This document shows positions 982 to 23,837 of a stretch of DNA of 51,011 bases, one piece after another. The stretch's first letter is position 1. Each line of letters starts with the position of its first letter. Source of the stretch: an uncultured Bacilli bacterium (GTDB lineage: Bacteria > Bacillota_I > Bacilli_A > RF39 > UBA660); assembly GCA_948479395.1 (NCBI GenBank), contig CAOLUI010000005.1, positions 1-51,011 on the forward strand, read 5' to 3'. The position numbers were made by a program, and so were the translations under genes. Below the pieces are notes generated by a model. It did no database searches. It was not told the origin of the DNA and saw only the letters and a program-made list of their open reading frames with translations.

Positions 982-1048
982 ATTGTTTATAATTAGTTTT
1001 TCCGCCATCAAGATTGTTTTCATGATAAAATTAATAAAGAGGTGGATT

Positions 1049-3058
1049 ATGAAAGGTAATTTTTATGACATTTTGCTAAATACTTTAAAACAAAATCCTA
1101 CATTTGTGTCTAGTAATGGAGTTTTACTTAAAAATAAAATAAAAGAATACGCTTTAAAAATGGATGAAGAACTAATAAATATATTATTTGAAAATGAAAT
1201 TATACGCGAAAAGTTTTTTCAAAAAATAGGTGATAACTATATTTTTGATAAAATAGAATTTAGCTGGATGATAAATAATAAAGAATTTCTGCCTAATAAT
1301 TATACAAAATATGGCAATAAAATACATTTAGCAACTAATGATGATGAGTATTTAATGTATAAAAATGATGTCGTTTTAACATTTCCTTATAAAGATTGTT
1401 TATTAGAATTTGATTCTACTGATGAAAATGAAAAAAGAGATGAAATATTTTATAATGAATCTCTTGCAAATGATCAAATAGATGTTTTATTAGATTCTAA
1501 GGTTTTTACCAATATCAATTATCATACTAAAGATGGACTAAAAAAATACAATAGATTTGATATTAATGATAATTTATTAATTAAAGGAAATAATTTATTA
1601 GTTTTAGCAAGTTTACTTCCAGTTTATGAAGGAAAAATTAAATGTATTTATTGTGATGTTTTATATAATACCAATAGTGATTACGTTCCTTATAATGATT
1701 CTTTTAAACATAGCAGTTGGTTAGTTATGATGAAAAATCGTCTAGAAATAGCGAAAAAGTTATTAAAACCAGATGGCTTAATATTTATAAGCATTGATGA
1801 TAATGAACAAGCTTATTTAAGTGTTTTGATGGATGAAGTATTCGGTCGTGAAAATTCTTTTGATAAGGTATCTATTCAAACATCAGCCTCTCAAGGGGGA
1901 TTTGGAGATGTTAATCCTGGATTAATATCCAATACAGAAAATTTACTAATTTATATTAAAGACAAGAATTATAAAAAAACTTGTTTTAATGAAGAAAATA
2001 TGTATGTTGGAAAAGAATATGATGAAAATTATAAATACATTATGACTGATTTAGAAAAGTTAGAATACACAAACATTACATATTTGGCATATGAAAAATT
2101 AGGAATAAAAAAGCCTTATAATAATAGTACATGGCGAAAGGTAAAAGAAAAATATGGTGATAATTATAAAGAAATTCTTTATCAAGAAAAAGCTTCAATT
2201 GCTCTTGATAATAAAGAGTTAGTATTTAGAACCTTTAATCCTAATAAGCCAGGAAATGAATTAAAAGTGGCATTAAAAGAATCGTTAAAAAAGAAAGATA
2301 AAATATATATTTATAAAGATTCTAAGGATAATGAAAGATATATCTTAAATGGAGAAGTTGTTTTATTTTATTCTAAAGTATTTAAAAATATCAATGGAGA
2401 ATATGTTCCTGCAAGACGTTTAACTACATTCTGGAGTGATATTGCTTGGGAAGGTATTGCTCGTGAGGGAAATGTTAAATTAAATAGAGGAAAAAAACCA
2501 GAAAAGTTAATAAAAAGAATTATTGAAATAGCAACGAATAAAAACGACATTGTTTTAGATGCCTATTTAGGAAGTGGAACGACTTGTGCAGTTGCCCATA
2601 AGTTAGGAAGAAGATATATTGGAATTGAACAATTAGAGAACCATTTTTCAAAAGCCCTTAATCGAATGGAAAGTGTTATAAATGGAGAGACAGGTGGTAT
2701 TTCATCAGAAATCAATTGGACTGGTGGAGGAGCTTTTTTAAGTATGGAAATGATGGTCAATAATCAAAAATATATTGATAAAATAACACATGAAAAATCC
2801 AAGAAAGATATAGTCAGGTTATTTAATGAAATAATTAAAAATGCTTATATAAATAACTTATTAAGTTTAGATAGTATTTTGGAAAGTGTTGAAGAATTTA
2901 AAAAATTAGGACTTAATGATCAAAAGAAATTTTTAATAAATATTTTAGATAAGAATATGCTTTATGTAAATTTTTCTGATATTGAAGATAATGATTACAA
3001 AGTAAGTTGCGAAGATAAAAAATTTAATTACTCATTTTATGGTGATAGTAATGAATAA
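1049..3058 (+). CDS. mod: Type III restriction-modification methyltransferase (Mod), beta-class N6-adenine MTase layout, non-canonical motif IV (DVLY)
   Basis: 'LPNNYTKYGNKIHL' and 'DNLLIKGNNLLVLASLL..GKIKCIYCDVLYNT' match the Mod N-terminal/motif IV region. Motif I 'VLDAYLGSGTTCAVA' lies near the C-terminus. Start moved to ATG 1049 behind an AAAGAGGTGG SD. The 3' end overlaps the res start. Confidence 0.85.
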   Translation: MKGNFYDILLNTLKQNPTFVSSNGVLLKNKIKEYALKMDEELINILFENEIIREKFFQKIGDNYIFDKIEFSWMINNKEFLPNNYTKYGNKIHLATNDDEYLMYKNDVVLTFPYKDCLLEFDSTDENEKRDEIFYNESLANDQIDVLLDSKVFTNINYHTKDGLKKYNRFDINDNLLIKGNNLLVLASLLPVYEGKIKCIYCDVLYNTNSDYVPYNDSFKHSSWLVMMKNRLEIAKKLLKPDGLIFISIDDNEQAYLSVLMDEVFGRENSFDKVSIQTSASQGGFGDVNPGLISNTENLLIYIKDKNYKKTCFNEENMYVGKEYDENYKYIMTDLEKLEYTNITYLAYEKLGIKKPYNNSTWRKVKEKYGDNYKEILYQEKASIALDNKELVFRTFNPNKPGNELKVALKESLKKKDKIYIYKDSKDNERYILNGEVVLFYSKVFKNINGEYVPARRLTTFWSDIAWEGIAREGNVKLNRGKKPEKLIKRIIEIATNKNDIVLDAYLGSGTTCAVAHKLGRRYIGIEQLENHFSKALNRMESVINGETGGISSEINWTGGGAFLSMEMMVNNQKYIDKITHEKSKKDIVRLFNEIIKNAYINNLLSLDSILESVEEFKKLGLNDQKKFLINILDKNMLYVNFSDIEDNDYKVSCEDKKFNYSFYGDSNE

Positions 3059-5651
3059 TTATTTATATGAAACGATAGAAACTCTAAAAAAATATGCCAA
3101 TATTAATATTGACCTACCTAATATAATAAATGATAATTTAAATCCAAAATTTGAATTAAGAAAGTATCAAATAGAAGCTTTTAAAAACTTTATATTTTAT
3201 TATACAAACGAAAATTTAAAAGTAATGCCTTTTCATCTTCTTTTTCATATGGCAACTGGAAGTGGAAAAACTTTGATGATGGCAGGTCTTATTTTATATT
3301 TATACCAACAAGGCTATCGAAATTTTCTTTTTTTTGTAAATTCTACAACTATTTTAGAGAAAACTAAAGATAATTTTTTAAATAATCAATCAGGCAAGTA
3401 TTTATTTAATAAAACAATAGAAATCGATTCTAAAAAAGTAAATATTAGGGAAGTTACTAATTTTCAAGGGGTAAATAAAGATGATATCAATATTTGTTTT
3501 ACTACTATCCAAGGCTTACATAATGATATTAATTTTGTTAAAGAAAATAGATTATCTCTTGATGATTTCAAATTACATAAAACTGTATTTATTTCAGATG
3601 AAGCGCATCACATAAATGCTTTAACAAATAATAAATTATCAAGCGAAGAAGAAGATTTAAAAAAGTCTTGGGAACATACTATTGACAATTTATTACTCCC
3701 AGCAAATAAAGAAAATATCTTATTAGAATTTACGGCTACTTGTGATTTAGATAATTCAAATATTAAAGAAAAGTATCAAAATAAAATTATCTATAATTAT
3801 CCTTTAAGTAGATTTCGAGAAGATGGTTTTTCAAAAGAAGTTGATACACTTCAAAGTAATGTTGATTTAAAAACAAAAATGATTCAAGCAATTCTCATTA
3901 GCCAATATCGTTTAAAATTATTTCAGTTAAATAAAATTGATATCAAACCTGTGGTTTTATTTAAATCAGATAATATTGAGAATTGTAGGAAGAATTATAA
4001 TGAGTTTGTTAAAATTATCAATAATTTAAAAAAAGAAGAAATTTTAAGTATTAAAGAAAATTCAACTAGTAAAATTTTAGTTGATATGTTTGCCTATTTT
4101 GAAAATTTTGATATAAGTATAGATAATCTAATAAAAGAGTTAAAAGATGATTTTTCTAAAGATAAATGTTTAGTAGTTAATAGTAAAGAAACTTTAGAAG
4201 ATATTCAATTAATAGTCAATTCTTTAGAAGATAAAAACAATTTATATCGAACAATTTTTGAAGTTAAAATGCTTGATGAAGGTTGGGATGTTTTAAATTT
4301 ATTTGATATTGTTAGACTTTATGAAACTCGCGATGGGAATAATGGTAAACCAGGAAAGAAAACTATTCAAGAAGCTCAATTAATAGGTAGAGGTGCAAGA
4401 TACTGTCCTTTTTCTCTTAATAATGGTGAAAAAAGATATATCAGAAAATATGATGATGATATAAAAAATCCATTACGAATTTGTGAAACACTACTATATC
4501 ATTGTCAGATGGAGTCACGATATATTTCAGAATTAAAAATTGCCTTAAAAGAAACAGGTATTATTCCTAAAGAAAGTATTTCGGTTCAATATACTTTAAA
4601 AGATAGTTTTAAAAATTCTGATTTTTATAAAAATGGTTGGATATTTAGTAATGAAAAAATATTAAAATCAAGAAAAGAAATTAAATCAATTCCCCAAAAT
4701 ATTAAAAATGAAATATTTGAATTTGTATATGATTTAGGAGAAACTAAACAAGAAAATCTTTTTGACGAAAAGTTAGATTATTTAAATTTAAATGAAAATA
4801 AATTCGAAAAATCTTATACAATTAATGAATTAGCAGATAATAACTATAACTTAGTTTTATGCGTTTTAAGAAAATTCAATATTTTTAAATTTTCTAATTT
4901 AAAAACTTATTTTCCTAATTTAACTTCAACGAAAGAATTTATTACTTCTAAAAATTATTTAGGTGATATAAAATTTATAATAAAATCTATTTATGAAGAA
5001 CCCAATAATTATTTAATAAATAAGGCTCTTTATAGTATTTTTTCTAAATTAAAAGACAACATTATTACTTTAGAAGAAGTTTATGAAGGAGTAAATAATT
5101 TTCAAGCTAAAAAATTTAATGAAATATTTATAGATAAAGTTATTAATATCAACAATCCATATGAAGATAGTGTAGGAATATCACAAAATATGGTTAATGA
5201 TGATTCTTATAGAATGGATTTAAGTAATGAAGATTGGTATGTTTATAATGATAATTATGGGACTACAGAAGAAAAAAAATTAGTTAAATATTTTAGTAAA
5301 TTTGTCAAAGAATTAAAAGAAAAATATACAGAAGTTTATTTGGTAAGAAATGAAAGAACTTTACCAATTTATTCTTTTTCTAATGGGGAAAGATTTGAAC
5401 CAGATTTTATTTTAGTTTTAATTGATAAAATAAATAAAAAACAATATCAAGTTTTTCTTGAAGCTAAAGGGACACAATTATTATTGCTTGATAAAGAGAA
5501 AGAAGAATTTTTAATAGAGTTAAATAGTAAGGCTATTCCTATAAAAAAATTTAAAGATGATTATGAATATTTTGTTTTAGGGTTTCCTTTCTTTAATCAA
5601 GATAACAAAATAACAGAATTTAATGAATATATGAAAAAGATTATTGATTAA
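3051..5651 (+). CDS. res: Type III restriction enzyme Res subunit (SF2 helicase plus PD-(D/E)xK nuclease)
   Basis: 'HMATGSGKT' (motif I), 'SDEAHH' (II), 'LEFTAT' (III) and 'QLIGRGAR' (VI), plus C-terminal 'FEPDF...VFLEAKG'. ATG 3051 is preceded by GGTGA. The alternative ATG at 3039 has no SD. Confidence 0.85.
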   Translation: MNNYLYETIETLKKYANINIDLPNIINDNLNPKFELRKYQIEAFKNFIFYYTNENLKVMPFHLLFHMATGSGKTLMMAGLILYLYQQGYRNFLFFVNSTTILEKTKDNFLNNQSGKYLFNKTIEIDSKKVNIREVTNFQGVNKDDINICFTTIQGLHNDINFVKENRLSLDDFKLHKTVFISDEAHHINALTNNKLSSEEEDLKKSWEHTIDNLLLPANKENILLEFTATCDLDNSNIKEKYQNKIIYNYPLSRFREDGFSKEVDTLQSNVDLKTKMIQAILISQYRLKLFQLNKIDIKPVVLFKSDNIENCRKNYNEFVKIINNLKKEEILSIKENSTSKILVDMFAYFENFDISIDNLIKELKDDFSKDKCLVVNSKETLEDIQLIVNSLEDKNNLYRTIFEVKMLDEGWDVLNLFDIVRLYETRDGNNGKPGKKTIQEAQLIGRGARYCPFSLNNGEKRYIRKYDDDIKNPLRICETLLYHCQMESRYISELKIALKETGIIPKESISVQYTLKDSFKNSDFYKNGWIFSNEKILKSRKEIKSIPQNIKNEIFEFVYDLGETKQENLFDEKLDYLNLNENKFEKSYTINELADNNYNLVLCVLRKFNIFKFSNLKTYFPNLTSTKEFITSKNYLGDIKFIIKSIYEEPNNYLINKALYSIFSKLKDNIITLEEVYEGVNNFQAKKFNEIFIDKVININNPYEDSVGISQNMVNDDSYRMDLSNEDWYVYNDNYGTTEEKKLVKYFSKFVKELKEKYTEVYLVRNERTLPIYSFSNGERFEPDFILVLIDKINKKQYQVFLEAKGTQLLLLDKEKEEFLIELNSKAIPIKKFKDDYEYFVLGFPFFNQDNKITEFNEYMKKIID

Positions 5652-5787: not shown

Positions 5788-6871
5788 ATGAAATTAAAAA
5801 GTTTCAAGAAAAACAAAAAACTAAAAAATACCCTCCTAGCCCTAGGCGCAATAGCACTATTGGGGGGTGGGTATAATAGTATATAGGAGTTATGCCCTAT
5901 ACCAACAAAATAAAAGTTATAATGTCTTGCGAGGAACAATACCAGACTTTAGTAGTGGAGATATAGAACTAACATTTACAATAGATGGCCAAGTAGTAGA
6001 TCAAGCATTTCCAAGTAAAAGCGATGGATATGGAGTAAACAATGTGACATGTGAAGATGGTGTAACAGCAGAGTGGAATATAGATAATTGGGGATTAGTA
6101 AATATAAATTCCAATAACAGTAAAAAGATAAAATGTAATATCGATTTTATAATTATCACTGATTTTGTTAAAAATTCTAAAATCGGAGATTATGTAAAAA
6201 TGGTACCTACAAGATCTTCTTACTCAATAGGCTATAGTAAAACTGGTTATAATAGCACCCAAATTATATATCCTTCACAATTAAAAATATGGCGAATAAT
6301 AAAGAAAAATGAGGATAATACTATTGAAATGATTTCTGATAATACTAGTAGTACAGCGATTCATTTTAAAGGTACTAAGGGGTTTCAATATTATATAGGT
6401 ACATTAAATGAAATAGCAAAAGCATATGAAAATAATAATACTATTGGGTCAAGATATTTTGGTTATAATGGACAAACAGAAGTAATTACAGATACATCTC
6501 AATTTAATTGTAAAAGTAATTGTAATATAACAGAATCTCAAGGAGGAGAAGATAATTTATATATGGGAGATGCTAATTTAGTAAAAAATGCCGTAGGAAC
6601 GTTAGAAGCTATACCAATAGACTCAGAATCAAAAGCGAGTTATTATGTTGCCACACGTCGTCTTACTTGGAGTAAGAATACTTATAACTATGGATATATA
6701 GGTACAGTTTATGGTGATGCTGTTAGTACATCGTCTCAATATATTTTTTCTTATCATATAGTAACTCAGGAATATGATTCATCTGCTCATCTGCGACCAA
6801 TAATAGTTTTGAAGCCAAATTTAAAAGCTACTGGTTTAGGGCAAAGTGATAATCCATGGGTATTAGAGTAA
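5788..6871 (+). pseudogene. Membrane-anchored surface protein, paralogue of 2..940; reading frame broken at a G6 tract (candidate phase-variable gene or homopolymer error)
   Basis: ATG 5788 lies behind AGAAAGAGGG and encodes MKLKSFKKNKKLKNTLLALGAIALLGG, then stops at 5884. The long ORF (5867..6871) is in the +1 frame. Removing one G from GGGGGG (5862-5867) fuses them into ...LLGVGIIVYRSYALYQQ.... The total length of 1084 nt is 3n+1. Confidence 0.65.
5862..5867 (+). repeat. Homopolymeric G6 tract at the frameshift point of the surface-protein gene
   Basis: Read directly: ctattGGGGGGtgggtat, located inside the predicted signal-anchor coding region. Confidence 0.9.
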
Positions 6872-10547: not shown

Positions 10548-11416
10548 ATGAATTTAAATTTTAATGAATTAAAAGAATTTTTATATAATATAAGAAATTC
10601 AAATCTTTTTGATAATCCTAAAGATTTATATAAAGCCATTAATCTTATTTCTGAAAAAAAGAAAAATTAGCGTTTAATGAAAACTTAATGTTAAAACTAT
10701 TTTACGAATGTGCTTATAGATACAATAAAACAGGGAATTTAAAAAAATATTTAAAAATTAGTTCTAAATGTTCTTTTGCAGATTTTTATAATTTTATGCA
10801 GAATCTTAAAAATGTTTCTATTAGAAGTGCTATACCAAATGATACAGCTCATAATTTAATAATTCGTAAGATTAAAAGAATATTAAAACACGATGAAATA
10901 GGAAGATGGACTTTTATTGATTTTTCAGTTATTCAAAATGAAGAAAAAGAGGATGATTCTTCTCTAAAAATATATTTATCTATTGATAATAAAAATTTGC
11001 ATTTTTTTGCAATTACATTTTTAAAATTATGTGAAGAAATAGGAATTAAATATAATTTTAAAATTAATGCTGATGATAGATATCGAAGAGCAGATAATGT
11101 TGTAATATATACTAATATTGCTGTTTTTTTTCAATATATTTATGTAATAGAGAGTATTAAAAAACAAAATCCTTAAATAGATTTTGGATCAGCACCTTTA
11201 TTAACTTATCATTATAATGAATATATTGCTCTAGCTCCTAAAGAGAAGGGCGGAAGCATTAGTTATTCTGAAAAATTATGTCAAGAAATATGCCGTTTAA
11301 GAGATGAAGCAGTAACTTTTCAAGATTTTTTTGAAGCAGTTCAACTAACAATAATAAAAGAGTTGGGTGAAATTGTTGATTTTTGCGAAATAAATAACTT
11401 TCCCGCTCGAAAATAA
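10548..11416 (+). pseudogene. HopA1-like family gene (tentative) broken by one frameshift and one in-frame stop
   Basis: Three collinear pieces: 10548-10667, 10688-11176 and 11177-11416. A frame change in an A-rich run near 10655-10687 and an in-frame TAA at 11174-11176 separate them. The length of 869 nt is 3n+2. 'LKIYLSI...NFKIN..RRADNVVIYTN' recalls T3SS-effector HopA1-family proteins of Bacillota (memory only). Confidence 0.5.
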
Positions 11417-11468
11417 ATAATTGTCTTTTAAAAAAAAATTTATTATAATCAATTTTGGTGATAAAATT

Positions 11469-12809
11469 ATGAAAAATAAAGATATTCTTTCTTTTTTAAA
11501 ACCGTATTTAATGAAAGAAAAAAAATATATATCTTTAGCTATTATATTCGCTTTAATTAGCAGTTTAATTAATTTAACTTATGGTTATTTGTCTGGATAT
11601 GCTCTTAATGCTGCCAGTGAAAAAGTTTTTAAAGTAGCCATTATAACGATACTAATAAATTTATTTTTTAGTAGTCTTAATTATTTAGTATTTTCACGAC
11701 AAAGTAATATTATATCTTCCAAAACCAGTTTAAATATTATGGAAGACATAAACTCATCTTTATTTTTAAAAGTTTTAAGTTTGCCTACCAAAGCTTTTGA
11801 AGAAAAATCAAGTGGCGAATTTATTAATCGTATAACTTCAGATACTGAAACAATAACAGATGCTATTTCTACACTTTTAAGTGTTGTTTTAAAAATATTA
11901 ACTAGTTTATTGGTTTTTATATATGTTTTATTTAATTCTAAATTAGTTTGTTTTGAAATAATAATCTATATTTTTATCTTATTCAAAATATCTTCAAAAT
12001 ATCGTCCAATTTTAAAAAAACAACAAAAAGAAATAAGAGAACAAAACGATAAATATGTATCTCATGTTAATGAATCTATTTTAGGTATTAGAGAAATAAA
12101 AATAATCGATTTGAACAAAATTACTATGCTATAATATATACTTTAGATGAAATTTTTGTTGCTTTAGTTTTTAGTAGCATTATTGGCGAGATCATTGTAG
12201 GAAAAAGTAACCTTACATTTCTAATTGCCATGAGTTATTATATTTATAATTTTATGAATTTAGTAAATTCTTTTATATCTTTTTCAACTTATTATCAAAA
12301 GCTTAAAGTCTCTGTTGAACGTATTAATGAAATCATTAATAATAAATTATATCAAGATACTAATTTTGGTAACTATCATAATCTCTCTATTTTAGGAAAA
12401 ATCGAATTTAAAAATGTAACTTTTCATTATCATGATAGTAAAAGAAAGATTTTAGATAAATATAACTTAATAGTTAAACCTAATACTAAAATCGCCATTG
12501 TTGGTAAAAGTGGAGAAGGAAAAAGTACAATTTTTAACTTATTATTACGTTATTTTGATATTATTAAGGGAGAAATATTACTTGATGATATTAATATACA
12601 AGAATATGATGAAACTAGTTTACGCAATAATATCAGTATTATTCGCCAAGATCCTTTTTTATTTAATCGAACAATTTTCGAAAATTTTAAAATGCTTAAT
12701 CCTAAAATTACTTTAAAAAAGATTCGAGAGTATTGTAGAATTGCTTTAATTGATGATTATATTATGTCTTTACCTCAAAAATATAATACTGTAATAGGAG
12801 AGGGGGGGG
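11469..12809 (+). pseudogene. ABC exporter (TMD-NBD fusion), 5' fragment; frameshifted and then truncated by insertion
   Basis: TM-rich N-terminus, Walker A 'GKSGEGKST' and Q-loop 'IIRQDP'. The frame switches in an A-run near 12095-12105 ('GIREIKII..*' to 'RFEQNYYAIIY'). Sense is lost after 'TVIGEGG' at the G8 run 12802-12809. Confidence 0.75.
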
Positions 12810-12810
12810 C

Positions 12811-12830
12811 GAATGAAGCTTATACCCAAA
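12811..12830 (+). repeat. Left terminal inverted repeat of the insertion
   Basis: GAATGAAGCTTATACCCAAA matches the reverse complement of 15018-15037 at 17 of 20 positions, including 12 contiguous. Confidence 0.6.
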
Positions 12831-13237
12831 ATAGATAAAAAGTAAGAAAAAAGCGGGTAGGTTCAAAAAAAGTTCTTCTAAAATCCTTATAAATAAAGGC
12901 CAAAATAGAGATTTTTAAGAAATTAGAACCCAAAAATGTGTAAAAAGGGTTCTTTTCGCAAGTGCGAAAAGTGTTAGTGGTGCAACTACGATGAATTTTA
13001 AACTCTTATTTTATAAGCGTTTTAAAGTTTCGTGGTGCATTCCCATATCCTGTTGTTATAAAAATTTCTTCTTTTTTTGTTATTTATAATATATATTTGC
13101 TTTTATGCAAAACCACCATAATTTAATATTTAATGGAAATTTTGAATATGCTACATTTCTTTTTAAAATGTACATGATATAATTATTTTTGGCTAACTGT
13201 GTTATAATATTGGTAGTTTGCATGAGGAGTTGAAGTA

Positions 13238-14980
13238 ATGATGAAAAATAAAAACAAATCAAATTTTTTAAAGAATATTAAAAAAACTTGGAATTATATA
13301 AGGGAATGTAAATTCAATTTAATTGGATATGCTGTGGTCAGCATTGTTGAAGCTGTAATTGGTGCAATTTTACCTTTAATTTCTGCTAAAATTATTTTAA
13401 ACATTACTGATGGAGTTATGATGCAATTAATATTGTCTGCTTTAACAGTATTTGGTATCGAATTTATATTATATATTGTGTTCTATTTTAAAGGATTTCT
13501 ATATCAAAGAGTTTATCAAAAAACATTGATTAATTTACAAACTGCTGTTGCTAGAGAAACATTAAATTTAGAAATAAGGGAAATAGACAGAGCATCCTCT
13601 GGATTATTTATAGATAGACTAAATAAAGATACTGGGGATATTTCAGGAATGTTTATGGAATATACATATTGGACATCATACGTAATATCAAATATTGGTG
13701 TTTTAGTTGCTGTCTTTATATTAAATAGATATTTATTCATATATGCCGTTATAACTTCAATTTGCATATTTTTAATAAATAAGAAAAGATTAAGTAAGCA
13801 GTATGAAGTACAAAAAAATTTAAAAAAAATTCAAGAAAAAAAAACAGGACTTACTGGAGAACTTGTTAGAGGTATAAGAGATATTAAAGTATTAAATGCC
13901 AGTAATACCATTCTAAAGCAAACAACGAATAAAATCATAGAATCTTCAAATGAAGAAGTGAAAATGTTAAATATTAGAAGAATATATCAATATTTTGAAA
14001 ATAATTTAAGAGCAATAAGCGATTTACTTTTTATTGTAATAGGATGTGTTCTGCATAACAAATCTTTATTAACAATTCCTACTTTTGTTATAATTTATAA
14101 TTATCAATCTAAAATAAAGAATTTATTAACTGGTGTTGTTCAATTATCAGAATATAATAAAAAATTTGTTGTCGCTTCTGATAGAATTTATGAAGTTATT
14201 GAAAATGAAAAATTTAGCAAAGAAAAATTTGGAACTTTGAGTACAAAAAAATTGTCAGGTCATATAAAATTTAATAATGTAAAATTTGGCTATAATGATA
14301 ATAAAATTATTGATGATATGAGTTTTGAAATCAAGCCTAATCAAAAGGTTGCCTTTGTTGGTAAAAGTGGTGCTGGTAAAACAACTATATTTAGTTTAAT
14401 AACAAAATTATATTCTATTGATGAAGGTGAAATATTATTAGATGGACATAATATTAATGATTTGAATTGCGATTCCTTAAGAAATAATATGTCTATTATT
14501 ACTCAAAATCCCTATATATTCAATTTTTCAATAAAGGACAATTTACTTTTAGCAAAAGAAAATGCAAGTATGAAGGAGATTCGTAATGCTTGTAAAATGG
14601 CATGTATTGATGATTTTATTATGTCTTTACCAGACAAATATGAAACAATGGTTGGTGAAAATGGAGTAATATTATCAGGTGGGCAAAAACAAAGGTTAGC
14701 AATTGCGAGAGCTTTGCTTATGAAAACTGAAATTATTTTGTTTGATGAAGCTACAAGTGCTTTGGATAACGAAACTCAAAGTGAAATACAAAATGCGATA
14801 AAAAACTTAAAAGGTGAATATACAATATTAATTGTTGCACATAGATTATCTACTGTAATAGATAGTGATAAAATATTTGTTGTAGACGATGGTAAAATAA
14901 TTGATAGTGGTTCTCATAAAGAATTATTGAAAAAAAGTAATTTTTATAAAAATCTATATGAAAAAGATTTAAATGTTTAA
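13238..14980 (+). CDS. ABC transporter ATP-binding/permease fusion (exporter type), intact; cargo of the insertion
   Basis: 580 aa. N-terminal TM domain, then 'GKSGAGKTT', 'LSGGQKQRLAIARAL', 'IILFDEATSALD' and 'VAHRLS'. A GAGGAG SD lies upstream. Confidence 0.9.
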   Translation: MMKNKNKSNFLKNIKKTWNYIRECKFNLIGYAVVSIVEAVIGAILPLISAKIILNITDGVMMQLILSALTVFGIEFILYIVFYFKGFLYQRVYQKTLINLQTAVARETLNLEIREIDRASSGLFIDRLNKDTGDISGMFMEYTYWTSYVISNIGVLVAVFILNRYLFIYAVITSICIFLINKKRLSKQYEVQKNLKKIQEKKTGLTGELVRGIRDIKVLNASNTILKQTTNKIIESSNEEVKMLNIRRIYQYFENNLRAISDLLFIVIGCVLHNKSLLTIPTFVIIYNYQSKIKNLLTGVVQLSEYNKKFVVASDRIYEVIENEKFSKEKFGTLSTKKLSGHIKFNNVKFGYNDNKIIDDMSFEIKPNQKVAFVGKSGAGKTTIFSLITKLYSIDEGEILLDGHNINDLNCDSLRNNMSIITQNPYIFNFSIKDNLLLAKENASMKEIRNACKMACIDDFIMSLPDKYETMVGENGVILSGGQKQRLAIARALLMKTEIILFDEATSALDNETQSEIQNAIKNLKGEYTILIVAHRLSTVIDSDKIFVVDDGKIIDSGSHKELLKKSNFYKNLYEKDLNV

Positions 14981-15017
14981 AAGGAGAATGCTTTTTTTGA
15001 TTAATTTTGTATTTTGC

Positions 15018-15037
15018 TTTGGGTATAAGGTCTATTC
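15018..15037 (-). repeat. Right terminal inverted repeat of the insertion
   Basis: Plus strand reads TTTGGGTATAAGGTCTATTC. Its reverse complement aligns with 12811-12830. Confidence 0.6.
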
Positions 15038-15039
15038 TA

Positions 15040-15359
15040 GGGGGGGGGGAATAAATTTTTCTGGAGGTCAAAAACAAAGAATTGCTATAGCAAGAGCTTT
15101 AGCTAAGAATAGTAAAATAATATTATTTGATGAAGCAACTAGCGCTTTAGATAACGAAGCCCAAGAAAAAATTATTAAAGTTATTAATGAAATAGCTAAA
15201 GATCATACAATTATCACAATTGCTCATCGTCTTTCAACTATAATAGATTCAGATACAATTCATATAATGGACAAAGGAAAGATAATTGCCTCAGGAACTC
15301 ATCAATCTTTATTAAAAAATAGCTCAATTTATCAGGAATTATATCAAAATAATGCGTAA
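15040..15359 (+). pseudogene. ABC exporter 3' fragment (signature motif to natural stop) belonging to the gene at 11469
   Basis: From the G10 run: '(G)INFSGGQKQRIAIARAL', 'IILFDEATSALD' and 'IAHRLS'. This is exactly the NBD part missing after 12809. The 'MFKRRM...' N-terminus in the ORF track is element-derived read-in. Confidence 0.75.
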
Positions 15360-15399
15360 AAAAATCATTTTTTTGGTATACTAACATTAGTGATGTATT

Positions 15400-16578
15400 A
15401 TGAAAAAAGATTGGATCAAAGTATTACCAATATTAATTCTAATTTTTCCTTTAATTTTTTCTTTGGAAAAAAATGAAATAAAAAATTCCAACTTAGTCTT
15501 TAATTCACAAAAAAAAGTCGAAAACAGTGTAGAAGAAATAATTAATGATAATAAAGATAAAACCATTCAAGAAAATAAAACCATTTCTGATAAATTTATT
15601 TATTTAGAATTTACTAATAAAAATCAAATATATAGTTATTATATTGATAAAGCAACCGGAGAAAAAGCAAATTTTGAGGATTTTATTAAAGCCGATAAAA
15701 AAGAAGCTTTTAAAGAAAAAATAAATGAATTACTTTATTTAAAATATCCTAAATTTATTGCTGATATATTAATAGAGGATCAAGGAGATAAAGTATATAA
15801 AATAGATAATGATAAATTAATTATTTATTTTGATAATTTTATAATTGAACCAGTAATAACCGAAAAATTATATTTAACAATAGATTATAACGAAATAAAA
15901 GAATACTTAGATTTTTCTTTTGTTTTAAATAAAGAATATCAAAATGAAGATGGTTTTATTAGAGATAAAAATAAAAAAGCTGTTGCTTTTACATTTGATG
16001 ATGGACCAGCAGGTGAAACAACAAATAAAATAGTTGATCTACTTGAGCAAAATAAAGCTCATGCTACCTTTTTTATGGTAGGTAATAAAATGGAATATGG
16101 AGCTAATACAATCCAAAATGTACTAGAAAAAGGCAATGAAATTGGTAGTCATTCGTATGCTCATAAAAGTATGAAAAGACAAAAATTTCCTGATTTAATA
16201 AAAGATGAAGAAAAAACTAAAGAAATTTATCGAAATATAACTGGAAAAGATTTGATTTATACAAGGCCTCCATATGGCGCAATAGACGCTAAAATTAAAG
16301 AAAATTTAGATACTATTTTCATTACTTGGGATTTGGATCCAGAAGATTGGTTACGCCGTGATAAAAATTATATTATTGATTATGTCATGGAAAATGTTAA
16401 AGATGGAGATATTATTTTAATGCATGATTTATATGATTCTACTGTAGAGGCTGTAGCTGAATTACTACCTAAATTATATGCTGAAGGGTATCAAGTTGTT
16501 AGTATATCCGAACTTGCTAGTTTAAAAGAACAAACTTTAGAAAAGCATAACATCTATCGTAATATTAGAAAAAATTAA
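15400..16578 (+). CDS. Polysaccharide deacetylase (NodB homology domain) with N-terminal signal/anchor
   Basis: 'AVAFTFDDGP', 'GSHSYAH', 'TRPPYG' and 'ILMHD'. Hydrophobic N-terminus. Confidence 0.85.
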   Translation: MKKDWIKVLPILILIFPLIFSLEKNEIKNSNLVFNSQKKVENSVEEIINDNKDKTIQENKTISDKFIYLEFTNKNQIYSYYIDKATGEKANFEDFIKADKKEAFKEKINELLYLKYPKFIADILIEDQGDKVYKIDNDKLIIYFDNFIIEPVITEKLYLTIDYNEIKEYLDFSFVLNKEYQNEDGFIRDKNKKAVAFTFDDGPAGETTNKIVDLLEQNKAHATFFMVGNKMEYGANTIQNVLEKGNEIGSHSYAHKSMKRQKFPDLIKDEEKTKEIYRNITGKDLIYTRPPYGAIDAKIKENLDTIFITWDLDPEDWLRRDKNYIIDYVMENVKDGDIILMHDLYDSTVEAVAELLPKLYAEGYQVVSISELASLKEQTLEKHNIYRNIRKN

Positions 16579-17139: not shown

Positions 17140-17216
<77 letters not shown>

Positions 17217-17227
17217 TTTTGTTTTTT

Positions 17228-17304
17228 GGCCAGTTGGTGAAGCGGCTTAACACACTGCCCTTTCACGGCAGCATTCACGGGTCCGAATCCCGTACTGGTC
17301 ACCA
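17228..17304 (+). tRNA. tRNA-Glu (anticodon TTC)
   Basis: Acceptor GGCCAGT/ACTGGTC, anticodon arm CTGCC-CTTTCAC-GGCAG, T-arm GGTCCGAATCC, encoded CCA. Confidence 0.85.
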
Positions 17305-18232: not shown

Positions 18233-18308
18233 TGGTGTCCCCTCAGGGATTCGAACCCTGGACCCACTGATTAAGAGTCAGTTGCTCTACCAACTGAGCT
18301 AAGGAGAC
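18233..18308 (-). tRNA. tRNA-Lys (anticodon CTT)
   Basis: Reverse complement GTCTCCTTAGCTCAGTTGGTAGAGC..., anticodon arm ACTGA-CTCTTAA-TCAGT, T-arm GGTTCGAATCC, encoded CCA. Confidence 0.9.
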
Positions 18309-19289: not shown

Positions 19290-22200
19290 ATGAATGATAT
19301 AGATATTTTAAATCAAAAATTAAAATCTGATTATAGCTCATTTCAAGAAGTTTTTAATTTGCCAGAAGCACTAGAGGTCTGTATAAAAAATCCAAAACTA
19401 TATAAATATATTTATTATTTTAATGAAAATACTTGGACAAATGATAATCAGAAACTATTTTCTGATATATTAGAAGAGTATAATAAAAGTTATCATTTTT
19501 CTAAATTCAAAATTACGAACCCATCGTTATTAACGCATGCTTACCAACTTGATTTAGCCTCATTATATAGAAATGCTACAAATGAGTCCTTAAATGAAGA
19601 AAATATTAAATTAGCTTATGAAAATAATAAAGTAGATTTTTTGTTATTTAGAAATAATTCTTTAGCTCTTAAAATCTATTTAAATAATAATTATAATTTC
19701 CAATTTGAGTTTACTGATTCAGCTTGGAATAGTGAAAATGCCAGAATTTATATAAAAAAAGTTAACGAAGGAAGTTTAAAAAATAAAATTTTTAGTTTTT
19801 ATACAAGTCTAATTTGTTTTAAAGAAGTCATTAATGAGCATCAATTTCAATTTATTAATAATTTTTATACTAATGATTTTAAGTTGGATGACAAAATAGG
19901 AAATCTATTATGTCAAAAAATGATTGAACATCCTGATTCGATAGTACCAATCAAAATGTGTATACTAAAAGAAATCGAAAGTTATTATTTAAAAGGATTA
20001 TTATTAGCTAAAAGAATCGATTTAGTAGATTCAGCTTTAACAGAAAAATCTCTAAATGAAGAAAATTTCTTATTATTAGCTGATAACTTAGAAGAATACT
20101 TAAATAGCGTTAATGATAAAATTAGTTTTTATTTATTCAAAAGCTCTATTATTTTGCATAAACTAATTGAAATAAAAAAATATGATATTATTTCATATTA
20201 TATATATAATGGGAATTGGACTGAGGAAAATATTAAGTTTTATTATGAACAAAATCTAAAAGACTCCTATTATCATATATTTGTCTACAATCCTAAAGCT
20301 TTAGAAATTTACTGTTTAAAAGATTATAAATATAAGATAAATTTTGCTAAAGAATGCTGGACAAAAGAAAATATTGAATATTATTTTGCCTATTTAAAGC
20401 GTGTTAAACCTAGTAATATAATACCAACATTTATATATATTCCTAATTTTTTTAACAGTTGTTTAAAGCATAATGTTTTTAATTATTTTAAATTTTCTTA
20501 TGATGAGAATATTAATTACGATTTATTATGTGAGAAATTAAGAGAATTCCCTAATGAAGAATTCAATTTTCATAATACTTTATTAAAAGGACATCCTGAA
20601 TTAGTTTTAACTTTTATTGAGACAAAAAGATATTATATATTTGAGAGTTGTCTTATTGATTGTAATCAAATAATTATTGAAAAATTTTGTTCCATTATGG
20701 ATGAATATTTTCAATTAGGTTTTAAATATGTTCCGAGTGCCATTGAAAATAGTCCTTTATTCATTAAAAGAGCCATTGAATTAAAACATTATGATAAATT
20801 GTCGTCTTTATCCCATGGCTGGACTATAGAAAACGCAACTTTATTAGCCAATAAATATGTAACTGATGATAATCTTTATTTTTATGATCTGTCAAGATGT
20901 AATAGTAAATATTTAATATATGCTTTAAAAAATTTAAATGTATATTTGCCATCAAATAGTAAGTATACTAGTAATTGCATTGATTACCATAATTACAAAG
21001 ATAGTTTCTTTACTTATCTAACAGAAAATAAAATCAATGATGTTTATAATTTAATTGATTATTTTAAACAAGAAAATGTTATTGAGGAATACATATCAAA
21101 TGGGTACTTGACAGATAAATTTAAGAAGATATTGATTTTTAATCATGGATACCAATGTTATTGTCAAGAAAAAGGAATTGATATTTTTGCCACTATCAAT
21201 GATTTAAGTTTAATTTCTTATTTAAAATGCGCGTATAAAGTACCTAATTTGTATCACGGAATATTTATTAATGAAACAAATTATAACTATTATTTTGATG
21301 AAAATGGTCCAAAACAAGAATTATATGATGACTTATTTAATGTCAATTCTTTATCTATTTTTAAAGCATTAATTGATAAATATCCTAACGAAAAAGATAA
21401 ACTAAAAATTTATTTTGCTGATAAATTTAGTAATATTGAAAACAAAAAGATTATCACATCATGTTTAAATTATTTTAAAAAGAATTATAAAATTATGACT
21501 GAAAAAAAGGTTGATGATTTATTAAACCTTATTTATAGAATTGACTATAGTAACGCCTTAGAAATCCATCAATTTTCTGAACAAATAATATCTAATATTT
21601 TAACTTGTGCTAATCCTTTAGATAAATTAAATAAAATTGAAAAAATATTTTTAAAAGATGATATTCCAATGTTTGCGAAAGTATATCAATGCTTTAAAAC
21701 ATTATATCCGCAATTTCAAAAATATGATAATCACAAAATGGTGTTTGATTTTAGTGATAATAGTCGTATATCTCCTGAATTATTAAAAGCAGATCCTAAT
21801 AGCATAAGAATGCAATTATTTAAAAAAATAGTAAATAATGATAAAACTAAAATTCGTTTTCAACTTATTTTTAATGACTTATTACGATGTTCACTTAATA
21901 GTAAAAATGAATCTTTAATGCAATATTTAAATAATTTAAAAAAGGGTAACGATTATATGTTTAAACTATATAATCATAATTTCGATAGTGATATTTTAAC
22001 CTCAGAAGAATTAAAGATTTTAAATAAGTTTGTTAGTTATTTAACCGTTATTTATGAAAATATAAATAATCAGAGTATAAATCATTTAGAGTTAGCTGAT
22101 AAATGTCAATCTTTAATCGCTTATTATAAACCTAATAGTAGATATTCATTAGCAGATAGAGTTGTAAGATCATTTGGCTTCTTTGCAAGTATTGACTCTT

Positions 22201-23837
22201 TGGAACAAATATTTGATTTGATAAATTGTTCTCATCAAAAAGCAAAATTAGAAAATGAATATCTAGGTTCGTATTTAGAAAATCATAATTTTGAATTACA
22301 TGATGATGATTTATTGCGATGTATTGGGAAATTTGATAATTTAGGGAGTTCTTTAGAAAATGGAAATGTATGTAAAGAATTATTAGGTTCTTTTATAGGA
22401 AAAAGTGATTCAGATACTACCCCAATGGATGTTGATTTTTCTTTAATTAAAAGTTCTGCTTCTATCTATAATTGTATTGATGGAACTCCAACAGGTTGGA
22501 ATTTTGGTAATATATTCTTAATTTTAAAAGATTATTATGTTACTAGAGACAAAAATGGCAACTTACTAGAATCTACATATGATCCTATGAAAGTGGAAGT
22601 TTTTGGGACAAGTACAAAAAAGGGCGGACATGAAACTCATTGGGGTGGTAGAAGTGGATTTGCTAAAACGAATATAAAATGTATTTTGTATAAAAAAATG
22701 GCGAAAATTAATTCTAATAAACCTTATAATGAAGATGGAAGTGTAAACTATGAGGAAAATGCTTCCTTTGATGATTTGCCTTCAATTAAGTTTGAAATTG
22801 TTCGAAATGGTCTGTATATTCCAATTGTTGATTTAAGTGGTAAATTAATATTTACGATTAATGAATATAACTATCTACGTTCAAAAATGATGGGATTATC
22901 TAAATATGGCTGCCCAGAATATCATTTAGATACGAATTCTTTGTATTTTGATGGTATTGATGAATTAGTTATGGAGATGGTAAACGATAGAAAAAGAATA
23001 TCAAATATTCGAAAATATATTTATAAACGTATAACAGAGATTATAATGGACTCTAAGTATAATTTAGGTATCCAAAAAATTGATAATTCTTTTCAAGGGG
23101 ATTTAACAAGTGGGATTGCCGAATTATTAGAAATTGGATCAACTGCTAGATTTAGCAATATTCCTTTTGATAGTGATTTTGATTTTATGTTAAAGTTAGA
23201 TAGAAAAATAATGATTGATAAAGAAAAAACAAAAAAAATTATTGAGATTTTTGAAAAAGAATTTAAACCTTATAAAACTGTTCCTACAAAATCAAATCGC
23301 TTTCGTGGTACAGGGATAAGCATATCTGAATTTGATAATCTTGATATTGATATTTCTATAGATAAAAGAAGAAATAACGACAGCTACTCGTCAGAAAAAG
23401 CCTTAAATGATATATATAATTCTATTAAAAAACAATATCCTGATGATTACCCTTATGTTTTAGCTAATATTGTAAAAGCAAAACAATTACTTAAAAATGC
23501 AAATATCTATAAACGCGTAGATAATGGTCTAGGTGGGATAGGAGTTGAGAATTGGATATTACAAAATGGTGGATCTTTAAAAAATGCTTGTCAAGATTTT
23601 ATTATACACGCATATAAAGCGGATGGAACTTTAAAAAGTTTTGCTGAATTTAAATCTTCTTATTATATATTTGATTTTGGGTGTAATCATGAACCAAGAG
23701 AAAAAATAAAAAATATTTATTATTCTTATGATAACTATATGGCTGATAACTTGAATGAATATACCTATAAGAAAATGGCAAATATTTTACAGGAGTATAT
23801 TGATAAAATAAATTTTGAAAATAAAAATAGAATATAA
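19290..23837 (+). CDS. 1,515-aa cytoplasmic repeat-rich protein with C-terminal Pol-beta-superfamily nucleotidyltransferase (CCA/PAP/OAS-like) domain
   Basis: Uninterrupted 4.5-kb ORF. Five or more W-(T/N)-x-(E/D)-N repeats lie in the first ~560 aa. 'IGSTARFSNIPFDSDFDF' (G1283-S1284...D1296-x-D1298) fits hG[GS]x9-13DxD. Also 'LDIDISID' and a 'GLGGIGVENWILQNGGS' neck-like motif. Confidence 0.8.
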   Translation: MNDIDILNQKLKSDYSSFQEVFNLPEALEVCIKNPKLYKYIYYFNENTWTNDNQKLFSDILEEYNKSYHFSKFKITNPSLLTHAYQLDLASLYRNATNESLNEENIKLAYENNKVDFLLFRNNSLALKIYLNNNYNFQFEFTDSAWNSENARIYIKKVNEGSLKNKIFSFYTSLICFKEVINEHQFQFINNFYTNDFKLDDKIGNLLCQKMIEHPDSIVPIKMCILKEIESYYLKGLLLAKRIDLVDSALTEKSLNEENFLLLADNLEEYLNSVNDKISFYLFKSSIILHKLIEIKKYDIISYYIYNGNWTEENIKFYYEQNLKDSYYHIFVYNPKALEIYCLKDYKYKINFAKECWTKENIEYYFAYLKRVKPSNIIPTFIYIPNFFNSCLKHNVFNYFKFSYDENINYDLLCEKLREFPNEEFNFHNTLLKGHPELVLTFIETKRYYIFESCLIDCNQIIIEKFCSIMDEYFQLGFKYVPSAIENSPLFIKRAIELKHYDKLSSLSHGWTIENATLLANKYVTDDNLYFYDLSRCNSKYLIYALKNLNVYLPSNSKYTSNCIDYHNYKDSFFTYLTENKINDVYNLIDYFKQENVIEEYISNGYLTDKFKKILIFNHGYQCYCQEKGIDIFATINDLSLISYLKCAYKVPNLYHGIFINETNYNYYFDENGPKQELYDDLFNVNSLSIFKALIDKYPNEKDKLKIYFADKFSNIENKKIITSCLNYFKKNYKIMTEKKVDDLLNLIYRIDYSNALEIHQFSEQIISNILTCANPLDKLNKIEKIFLKDDIPMFAKVYQCFKTLYPQFQKYDNHKMVFDFSDNSRISPELLKADPNSIRMQLFKKIVNNDKTKIRFQLIFNDLLRCSLNSKNESLMQYLNNLKKGNDYMFKLYNHNFDSDILTSEELKILNKFVSYLTVIYENINNQSINHLELADKCQSLIAYYKPNSRYSLADRVVRSFGFFASIDSLEQIFDLINCSHQKAKLENEYLGSYLENHNFELHDDDLLRCIGKFDNLGSSLENGNVCKELLGSFIGKSDSDTTPMDVDFSLIKSSASIYNCIDGTPTGWNFGNIFLILKDYYVTRDKNGNLLESTYDPMKVEVFGTSTKKGGHETHWGGRSGFAKTNIKCILYKKMAKINSNKPYNEDGSVNYEENASFDDLPSIKFEIVRNGLYIPIVDLSGKLIFTINEYNYLRSKMMGLSKYGCPEYHLDTNSLYFDGIDELVMEMVNDRKRISNIRKYIYKRITEIIMDSKYNLGIQKIDNSFQGDLTSGIAELLEIGSTARFSNIPFDSDFDFMLKLDRKIMIDKEKTKKIIEIFEKEFKPYKTVPTKSNRFRGTGISISEFDNLDIDISIDKRRNNDSYSSEKALNDIYNSIKKQYPDDYPYVLANIVKAKQLLKNANIYKRVDNGLGGIGVENWILQNGGSLKNACQDFIIHAYKADGTLKSFAEFKSSYYIFDFGCNHEPREKIKNIYYSYDNYMADNLNEYTYKKMANILQEYIDKINFENKNRI

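Follow-up and report, generated by a model that had tools for sequence, protein, structure and literature searches.

A recombinase-less cargo element inserted in a G-run of an ABC exporter gene and its probable mobilisation by a TndX/TnpX-like large serine recombinase

We analysed a 51,011-nucleotide stretch of DNA from an uncultured Bacilli bacterium (contig CAOLUI010000005.1 of assembly GCA_948479395.1; "the window" below means this whole stretch), in which a gene for an ATP-binding cassette (ABC) exporter is split by a 2.2-kb insert carrying a second, intact ABC exporter gene. The insert has inverted ends, each bordered by a run of G, and shares them with a family of elements found at many unrelated targets. 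Wherever the gene of the family's large serine recombinase (LSR) was recovered with its 3' end and the DNA behind it, that gene ends beside the right end of the element. Based on these observations, we consider it probable that the insert is an integrated, recombinase-less member of this family, moved by a TndX/TnpX-like LSR coming from related conjugative elements.

RESULTS

Anatomy of the inserted element

The reading frame of the host exporter runs to ...NTVIGEGG at the left G-run and is picked up after the right G-run as (G)INFSGGQKQRIAIARAL...IAHRLS..., reaching its stop codon at 15359. The parts of the split gene and of the element are listed below by window position and strand; L numbers designate individual loci, att stands for the attachment sites of a recombinase and oriT for an origin of transfer.

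11469-12134 (+): host ABC exporter, frame 1, N-terminal transmembrane part, 221 aa; PF00664 ABC_membrane; stop after ...GIREIKIIDLNKITML
12101-12809 (+): host ABC exporter, frame 2, remaining membrane domain and first part of the ATPase domain; open to ...TVIGEGG, aligns with the uninterrupted L056 and L057
12802-12809 (+): left G-run, G8 here and G6 or G7 in other samples; proposed attL crossover core
12810-13063 (+): left-end backbone module, 254 bp, common to members with unrelated cargo; 89% with L033, 72% with L038 and L032 (seven-member alignment)
12811-12832 (+): left arm GAATGAAGCTTATACCCAAAAT, no mismatch to the family consensus; P' half-site of attP (proposed)
12952-12971 (no strand): palindrome CTTTTCGCAAGTGCGAAAAG; candidate oriT hairpin, or terminator for leftward transcripts
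13034-13055 (+): 22-mer GGTGCATTCCCATATCCTGTTG, candidate oriT nick region; identical in five members, core kept in 7/7
13185-13237 (+): proximal promoter and ribosome-binding site region of the cargo gene, as read from the sequence (TGTGTTATAAT at about 13198-13208; GAGGAG before ATG)
13238-14980 (+): cargo, an intact 580-aa ABC half-transporter with fused membrane and ATPase domains, MsbA-like
15016-15037 (-): right arm, reverse complement GAATAGACCTTATACCCAAAGC, five mismatches to the family consensus; proposed P half-site of attP
15040-15049 (+): right G-run, G10 here and G8 in other samples; proposed attR crossover core
15045-15359 (+): remainder of the host ABC exporter (GGINFSGGQKQR...IAHRLS...stop) with ABC signature, Walker B and H-loop; PF00005; contiguous with the left part in L056 and L057

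The two G-runs are the only runs of at least seven G in the whole window, against 0.38 expected by chance. The inverted ends (12811-12830 and 15018-15037) are complementary at 17 of 20 positions, a level that only one of 5000 random pairs of window 30-mers reaches, and the full 22-bp arms agree at about 17 of 22 positions. Between them lie 428 bp with no convincing open reading frame (ORF) and the exporter gene, which is the sole gene inside. Neither a recombinase nor a transposase was found in the element or elsewhere in the window, and the element is called non-autonomous because its own copy encodes no recombinase. A preliminary description, made from the sequence alone, had reported an exporter gene split between a G8 and a G10 run, ends matching at 17 of 20 positions, a 0.43-kb leader followed by one intact 580-aa exporter, and no transposase or integrase; all of these features were recovered where it had placed them.

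Outside the element, ordinary core chromosome makes up the window (type III restriction-modification, MutL, RNase III, SMC, FtsW, ComEC, TopA and others). Compared by blastn with plasmids and phages, the whole element showed only generic ATPase-domain similarity and is thus not a segment of a known plasmid or phage, and a search of positions 11000-16000 against Rfam at E values up to 1 returned only a chance match, the leader fitting no known RNA family. Homologous recombination between paralogous ABC genes was considered as the origin of the insert and rejected, since it is the inverted ends, and not ABC sequence, that coincide with the junctions.

Reality of the junctions and the uninterrupted site

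Poly-G is a known artefact of two-colour Illumina chemistry, and some contigs do break at the G-runs (L005, L006, run X7), so that the insert might be suspected of being a chimeric join. We hold this to be next to impossible. The same insertion is present at the same site in four independently assembled metagenome contigs (L001-L004), and it is therefore not a poly-G assembly artefact. The junctions occur in at least 19 public runs, in three of which, additional to these assemblies, single Logan contigs cross both of them at even depth; the exact 580-aa protein is encoded on contigs of several independent samples. The host reading frame is resumed exactly past the insert, and the same ends with G-runs recur at about 40 loci from many projects, among them the 'Clostridium sp. 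CAG' scaffold HF996712.1, whose dataset is presumably older than two-colour instruments. The possibility of a poly-G artefact raised by the preliminary description can thus be set aside. Samples disagree in the lengths of the runs, with 6, 7 or 8 G at the left junction and 8 or 10 at the right one, reflecting either real slippage or homopolymer sequencing error.

A search with the joined ATPase-domain sequence recovered orthologues from two related species, L056 and L057, in which the host ABC gene is unsplit. The L057 orthologue (78% amino acid identity) reads KIGEGGVNLSGGQKQR across the site, the DNA of which is GAAGGGGGAGTA (G5), and is followed by the same downstream gene. That of L056 (70%) reads GAAGGTGGA and stands in the same gene order as in the window (PGP-phosphatase, RsgA, MutL, ABC). 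The target was therefore a short G-run of Glu-Gly-Gly codons, and in the window the host gene is inactivated.

The host gene carries a second lesion upstream, a frame change within 12060-12235, with a stop at 12132-12134 and the other frame open from about 12101. Since the L056 and L057 orthologues likewise consist of two ORFs each, with the break in the corresponding part of the membrane domain, the frame break is older than the insertion. Their ATPase-domain ORFs remain open and 70-78% identical despite the upstream break, and the host gene with its frame break may be either an old pseudogene or a functional gene made of two ORFs.

A family of elements sharing the ends

Scanning one genome per species with the right-end pattern TTGGGTATAAGNNNNATTCN{0,3}GGGGG gave 11 loci. 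Ten proved to be true relatives, from Bacilli, Erysipelotrichaceae or 'Tenericutes'-labelled metagenome-assembled genomes and from one 'Clostridium sp. CAG' scaffold. The family end has the consensus GAATGAAGCTTATACCCAAAAT, which in small members always stands beside a G-run. Complete small members are 1.1-3.6 kb long, carry unrelated cargo and no mobilising enzyme, and are bounded by near-perfect 22-bp inverted repeats; in L033 these match at 22 of 22 positions, with G9 and G10 outside. The cargo consists of Fic and a metallo-beta-lactamase (MBL)-fold protein in L031, L033, L036 and L038, of LysR, CoaD, CoaE and an MBL-fold protein in L030 and L032, of DUF5680 and a YhcG-type nuclease in L035, and of one small unknown gene in L034.

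The Fic/MBL unit is 92.6-99.6% identical at four loci, the 1.2-kb flanks of which share nothing. Because this unit is near-identical at four unrelated sites, the enzyme-less members can be said to move as units, and to have done so recently. Two sites (L030, L032) hold the LysR unit, and near-identical small units occur in different species-level genomes. The ABC unit of the window is itself known from two complete sites (the window and L018) and two partial ones (L011 and L020), the latter retaining the right end and G-run with different left parts. At L018/L019 the whole 2.2-kb element lies in an unrelated intergenic promoter-like site, flanked by ...GCATGGGG on the left and ATGGGGGTATTAT... 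on the right; it is 91% identical to the window copy and colinear with 12808-15045. The earlier view of a non-autonomous, cargo-only mobile element that landed in the G-run encoding GEGG is borne out, with the sister units at unrelated sites supporting movement by an outside enzyme.

One member, L037, contains a truncated IS110-family fragment (reverse strand, 3277-3738, about 600 bp inside the right end) matching Transposase_20 only, which is probably the remnant of a nested insertion sequence (IS).

A large serine recombinase gene beside the right end

The LSR of L039 is a 661-aa protein with Resolvase, Recombinase, Zn_ribbon_recom and DUF4368 domains and an inserted LysM domain; 21 bp separate the end of its gene from the right arm. 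When metagenomes were scanned with this protein, 16 loci were obtained. All 12 that hold the 3' end of the gene, whole or remnant, together with the DNA behind it have the right arm 21-24 bp past the gene. These 12 loci represent nine different flanks, and the arm is followed by a G-run in all except the L049/L050/L051/L054 insertion, where one or two G are left. The same spacing of 21-24 bp is seen at ten loci with an identical LSR, P0244, whose gene is followed by ATTTTGGGTATATCCTTAATTCT, then by G4-G11 and then by nine different sequences. Together with L039, the LSR gene thus ends 21-24 bp from the right end in 23/23 loci holding its 3' end and the DNA behind. The genes upstream at L040, L059, L060 and L061 include those for a VirD4/TraG-type coupling protein and a sortase, that is, the backbone of a conjugative element, and it is on this backbone of coupling protein, sortase and LSR that P0244 rides. 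For the conjugative elements (L040-L048, L058-L061) the left ends lie beyond the 10 kb fetched. Among viral contigs, nothing was found with either the end patterns or the LSR, so that the family is not phage-borne in that collection.

The nearest annotated relative of the LSR is TndX of Tn5397, to which it is 27% identical over 88% of its length (E 2e-42). DUF4368 is the hallmark of a multi-targeting LSR clade that includes TndX-like transposases (PMC10083194). In Tn4451, the member studied best, recombination takes place between identical sequences of 2 bp and does not require a directionality factor (PMC5704250). The preliminary description had assigned the element to DDE-type transposition and envisaged an IS with matching ends. 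No such IS was found, nor is any DDE transposase linked to the ends in about 45 loci; what the search did bring is an LSR with the same right end, a concrete candidate for the mobilising enzyme.

Two loci were considered as complete autonomous elements and rejected: L053, the right side of which is truncated, and L050, which has an LSR remnant only and a different type of left end. The member represented by L050 (3476-10640) and L054 is 7.1 kb long, has two ends and lies within a gene of collagen-like Gly-X-Y repeats. What it keeps of the LSR is C-terminal; its cargo comprises an aminotransferase, a major facilitator superfamily transporter and a LiaF-like protein, and a C5 DNA methyltransferase just after the left end appears by eye to be disrupted. 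The left arm of this member is of a second type (GATTGAAGGATAAACCCAAAAT) and comes without the candidate oriT module.

G-runs and target preference

All left ends of the family border on a G-run, its length ranging from 4 to 9. The runs at the two junctions of an insertion are unequal (9 versus at most 2 in L050, 11 versus 5 in L022, 4 versus 5 in L018, 6-8 versus 8-10 in the window), and among family insertions, with flanking G-runs ranging from at most 2 up to 11, a non-G base is never duplicated. A staggered cut by a DDE enzyme leaves equal repeats of fixed length. The unequal runs therefore fit a crossover inside a homopolymer rather than a fixed-length duplication, and the target duplication proposed earlier is not supported.

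The family has 30 distinct right flanks, each standing behind a G-run. A −10-like TAnnnT directly follows the run in 15 of the 30 (background 3.9% per position), and several further flanks have TATAAT a few bases past it. On the other side, TTGACA is found 1-9 nt before the G-run at five of the nine distinct sites with a recovered left flank (L018, L020/L022, L033, L034, L053). When the two flanks of L033 are joined, they give TTGACA-ACCCTC-G(n)-TGATATAAT, which resembles an entire promoter whose spacer holds the G tract. Surface-type proteins (DUF285, LRR_5, Flg_new, N_methyl) are often encoded downstream. Either these flanks are read by the recombinase, or the G tracts of these genomes, with 23-30% G+C, simply lie mostly in such promoters.

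The ABC gene of the window is an atypical target. According to the preliminary description, the element in effect replaced a decaying exporter with a functional paralogue. This idea is weakened because the frame break of the host gene predates the insertion, and the pairing looks coincidental, as it is G-runs before TAnnnT, not ABC genes, that recur among the right flanks. That cargo and target are both ABC paralogues is most simply a coincidence.

The left flanks of L018, L020/L022, L032 and L034, which are independent insertions in different genomes, all read TTGACAAAAnnGCCT and then the G-run; this may be a conserved promoter, with a phase-variable G tract, that serves a family of surface-protein genes. 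The window has an unoccupied arrangement of the G-tract/−10 kind usually entered by the family, at 5862-5876, where G6 is followed by TGGGTATAAT just upstream of an ORF at 5867-6871 (334 aa, no Pfam match).

The left module, a candidate origin of transfer

The left module, still recognisable in the divergent L034 and L035, contains four conserved blocks: the arm, a palindrome, a hairpin and a nick-type motif. The palindrome, TTTTNGCAAGTGCN'AAAA, exists in three family variants that are compensated on both sides (C/G, T/A, G/C), and the hairpin has the form CTTAT-NNN-ATAAG with a variable loop. The fourth block reads TGGTGC..CATATCCTGTT, and its ..CATATCCTGTT part is invariant in seven members with unrelated cargo. 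Within the window copy, TATCCTGT at 13046-13053 fits the nick consensus of the MOBP class; it is invariant in the seven members and has the conserved hairpins upstream. This consensus is (C/T)ATCCTG(C/T) and normally comes after an inverted repeat (PMC3772185). Similarity between members with different cargo stops three bases past the nick motif, and the cargo starts there, while at L020/L022 foreign DNA is joined exactly at the 5' edge of the motif. The DNA fold of the window copy has a z score of −4.6. From these sequence features, we regard the left module with moderate confidence as a candidate origin of transfer.

The cargo exporter in other contexts

In uncultured gut 'Bacilli', the cargo protein has homologues at graded levels of identity. 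At 87-92% identity (e.g. L007, L012, L026) they are ordinary chromosomal genes without the inverted ends, and at 94-97% they are found in unrelated contexts. The promoter stretch is kept with the gene in every context, also in those without inverted ends (from 13185 in L014, from 13194 in L012). The cargo exporter is a horizontally moving accessory gene.

At L014 (6001-11381), an ABC gene 97% identical to the cargo, without the inverted ends, lies beside a MobA/VirD2-type relaxase, TnpV and an unrelated large serine recombinase. This LSR was considered as the cognate enzyme of the family and rejected, being only about 20% identical to the family LSR; it belongs to a different, Tn4451-like carrier. 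Because the L014 copy sits in such a Tn4451-like unit, the exporter gene has been taken up by a second kind of mobile element. Three strains, L007, L008 and L009, share an 87%-identical chromosomal homologue of the exporter and differ directly downstream of 7749, a variable region in which one of the three has an AraC-type regulator and a second ABC exporter.

DISCUSSION

Proposed mechanism

The course of events that we propose takes its catalytic steps from established serine-integrase chemistry. In the excised circle, the ends of the element would join as ...ATTTTGGGTATAAG..CATTC-TA-G(n)-C-GAATGAAGCTTATACCCAAAAT..., giving a pair of inverted 22-bp arms with a non-palindromic G-run core between them, which is the layout of an LSR attP. 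A recombinase dimer bound to this attP would pair with a dimer on a chromosomal G-run serving as attB. Cleavage of both duplexes at a GG within the runs would leave a 2-nt stagger, after which the subunits would rotate and the ends be rejoined. The resulting attL and attR would each retain one arm and part of both G-runs, and this would leave flanking G-runs on the same strand and of differing length, set by the alignment of the runs and later by slippage. At the site in the window, the presumed target is a G5-6 run of the Glu-Gly-Gly codons just before the ABC signature, and the host gene would have been cut in two there. We infer that the enzyme came from elsewhere, presumably from a co-resident conjugative element of the same family with the LSR as its last gene. 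The 250-bp left module probably adds an origin of transfer, in which case the unit would be using a borrowed integrase as well as borrowed conjugation machinery.

Weighing the alternatives

The alternative that we take most seriously, though we judge it unlikely, is that a full recombinase-bearing element has lost everything except its ends and the ABC gene in place, so that the small unit itself never moved. Decay of this kind to elements bounded by att sites is well documented (PMC5704250), a decaying LSR inside a two-ended element is seen in L050/L054, and the window copy, with its degenerate right arm, is found in all samples seen. Against this, the same 2.2-kb architecture stands at the unrelated L018 site, 91% identical over its full length, and the colinear copies (12808-15045) are without differing internal deletion end points; other small units are near-identical at up to four sites. 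The remnant explanation is disfavoured because independent deletions would not yield the same unit each time. Still less probable, in our view, is a non-autonomous DDE transposon (a cargo-bearing miniature inverted-repeat transposable element (MITE) or a mobile insertion cassette (MIC)), moved by the transposase of an unseen IS and flanked by G-runs as its target-site duplication. Terminal inverted repeats, a direct repeat on both sides and enzyme-less units at several sites are what such a transposon would show. Yet in about 45 loci the ends are never accompanied by a DDE transposase, and the only transposase-like ORF there is the truncated IS110-type fragment of L037; the LSR stands beside the right end in all 23 loci with its 3' end and the DNA behind; and the G-runs are unequal, from at most 2 to 11, with no non-G base duplicated. 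That same fragment, with its Transposase_20 match about 600 bp inside the right end, might together with the structured 0.43-kb leader suggest an IS110-type recombinase guided by an RNA from the leader. We consider this very improbable: the fragment is truncated and confined to one member, no intact IS110 gene lies beside the ends elsewhere, and the region holds no Rfam family. Moreover, IS110 elements are not known to have long terminal inverted repeats.

Several observations weigh against mobilisation by a family LSR as well. Public runs were examined as assembled contigs; in these, the empty site was not seen in the same species, the uninterrupted site being at hand in orthologous form from the two other species, and no circle junction or excision product was found in the runs compared with the window element and the recently moved L033 element, the joints listed there being cross-matches between ABC paralogues. 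No complete element with an intact LSR and both ends was recovered, nor was a family LSR seen in one genome with the window element, the 51-kb window itself having none. The half-sites of an LSR are normally at a fixed distance from the crossover, and G-runs of 4 to 11 would change this spacing and could block re-excision. The right arm of the window copy is off consensus at 5 of 22 positions; given this degenerate arm, and since no sample seen was without the copy, the copy may have lost the ability to move. Other points concern the left module. Upstream of the nick motif, a convincing long hairpin is seen in the window copy alone, and for this reason we rely on the short hairpins and on the palindrome with its compensated variants. 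This palindrome also receives a score as a terminator of leftward transcription, which lowers confidence in an oriT. Finally, the sequenced parts of the conjugative elements contain no nick module, matching oriT or relative of the L014 relaxase, and since no matching motif is found there, the oriT assignment is only a lead.

Other features of the window

The window also contains a 1515-aa ORF with no Pfam match at 19290-23837, which is conserved at the same position in L001. A type III restriction-modification pair is encoded by two ORFs at 983-5651, the first for a methylase (N6_N4_Mtase, TypeIII_RM_meth) and the second for a ResIII/DEAD helicase-type subunit. Genes for tRNA-Ile(GAT) and tRNA-Glu(TTC) on the forward strand and for tRNA-Lys(CTT) on the reverse strand lie at 17140-17304 and 18233-18308; the C6 run at 17201-17206 is part of tRNA-Ile.

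Implications and comparison with known systems

About half of the insertions lie between the −35 and −10 elements of promoter-like sequences with a G tract, upstream of surface-protein genes, which suggests an interplay with phase variation in gut Bacilli. Taking this further, we would offer the following only as a tentative idea. The 1-4 kb units might be "double hitch-hikers", consisting of two half-sites, an oriT and cargo, that borrow both the LSR and conjugation; the LSR might be aimed at G tracts, mainly in the −35/−10 spacers of surface-protein promoters in A+T-rich gut bacteria, so that insertion and excision would switch surface genes. There is also a practical side, as the LSR could serve as a tool with a simple apparent target rule, the G-run, and with a compact attP, about 50-55 bp long. 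Genome-engineering development of multi-targeting LSRs from its clade is already under way (PMC10083194), and it is the combination of the simple target, the compact attP and this use of the clade that makes the LSR of practical interest.

Among known elements, the family is most readily compared with Tn4451/Tn4453 (recombinase TnpX) and Tn5397 (TndX) of Clostridia, which it resembles in the domain set of the recombinase, including DUF4368. Like Tn4451 and Tn5397, it uses many targets and has a short identical junction sequence and imperfectly inverted ends, and, as with Tn5397, part of the family of the window element is conjugative. The differences are equally clear. The family LSR is only 27% identical to TndX, and the core is a homopolymeric G-run of variable length, whereas Tn4451 uses 2-bp identical sequences (PMC5704250). 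In contrast to Tn4451 and Tn5397, the recombinase gene of the family comes last and reads outward to the right end, and the window element has neither recombinase nor relaxase. As described by Durrant et al. 2022 (PMC10083194), members of the multi-targeting LSR clade carry DUF4368 and insert at many unrelated targets sharing a short motif, and P0244 behaves likewise. The example given there has a TT core in A/T-rich surroundings (PMC10083194), while the motif of the family is a G-run, often ahead of TAnnnT.

The small units can also be set beside elements that depend on a relative's enzyme. Pseudo staphylococcal cassette chromosomes (ΨSCC) lack ccr. Like these and like cis-mobilizable elements (CIMEs), the small units are site-bounded, bear cargo, lack a recombinase and depend on the enzyme of a relative (for the definition of CIMEs, see PMC5704250; ΨSCCmec was reported in PMC6450365). 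The window element corresponds to a CIME in having both arms and both G-runs, with the ABC exporter as its only gene. However, CIMEs and ΨSCC cassettes occupy one specific site, their presumed origin being decay in place or accretion, whereas the small units occur at several unrelated sites; because the same units recur at such sites, they do not conform to the decay in place that characterises CIMEs. Unlike both, they look like free-moving miniatures and may bear their own oriT.

Miniature cargo elements that rely on an outside transposase are well known for DDE enzymes. IS231-derived MICs and cargo MITEs have no transposase, carry passenger genes between inverted ends, take their DDE enzyme from elsewhere and are flanked by duplications of fixed length. 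In the present family, by contrast, the enzyme linked to the ends is a serine recombinase, and repeats of varying length flank the elements. The enzyme-less relatives of serine-recombinase elements known to us (ΨSCC, CIME-like remnants) stay at one fixed site. The family described here thus provides a natural example of 1-4 kb enzyme-less units with single accessory modules, present at several sites and, as we propose, served by a serine recombinase.

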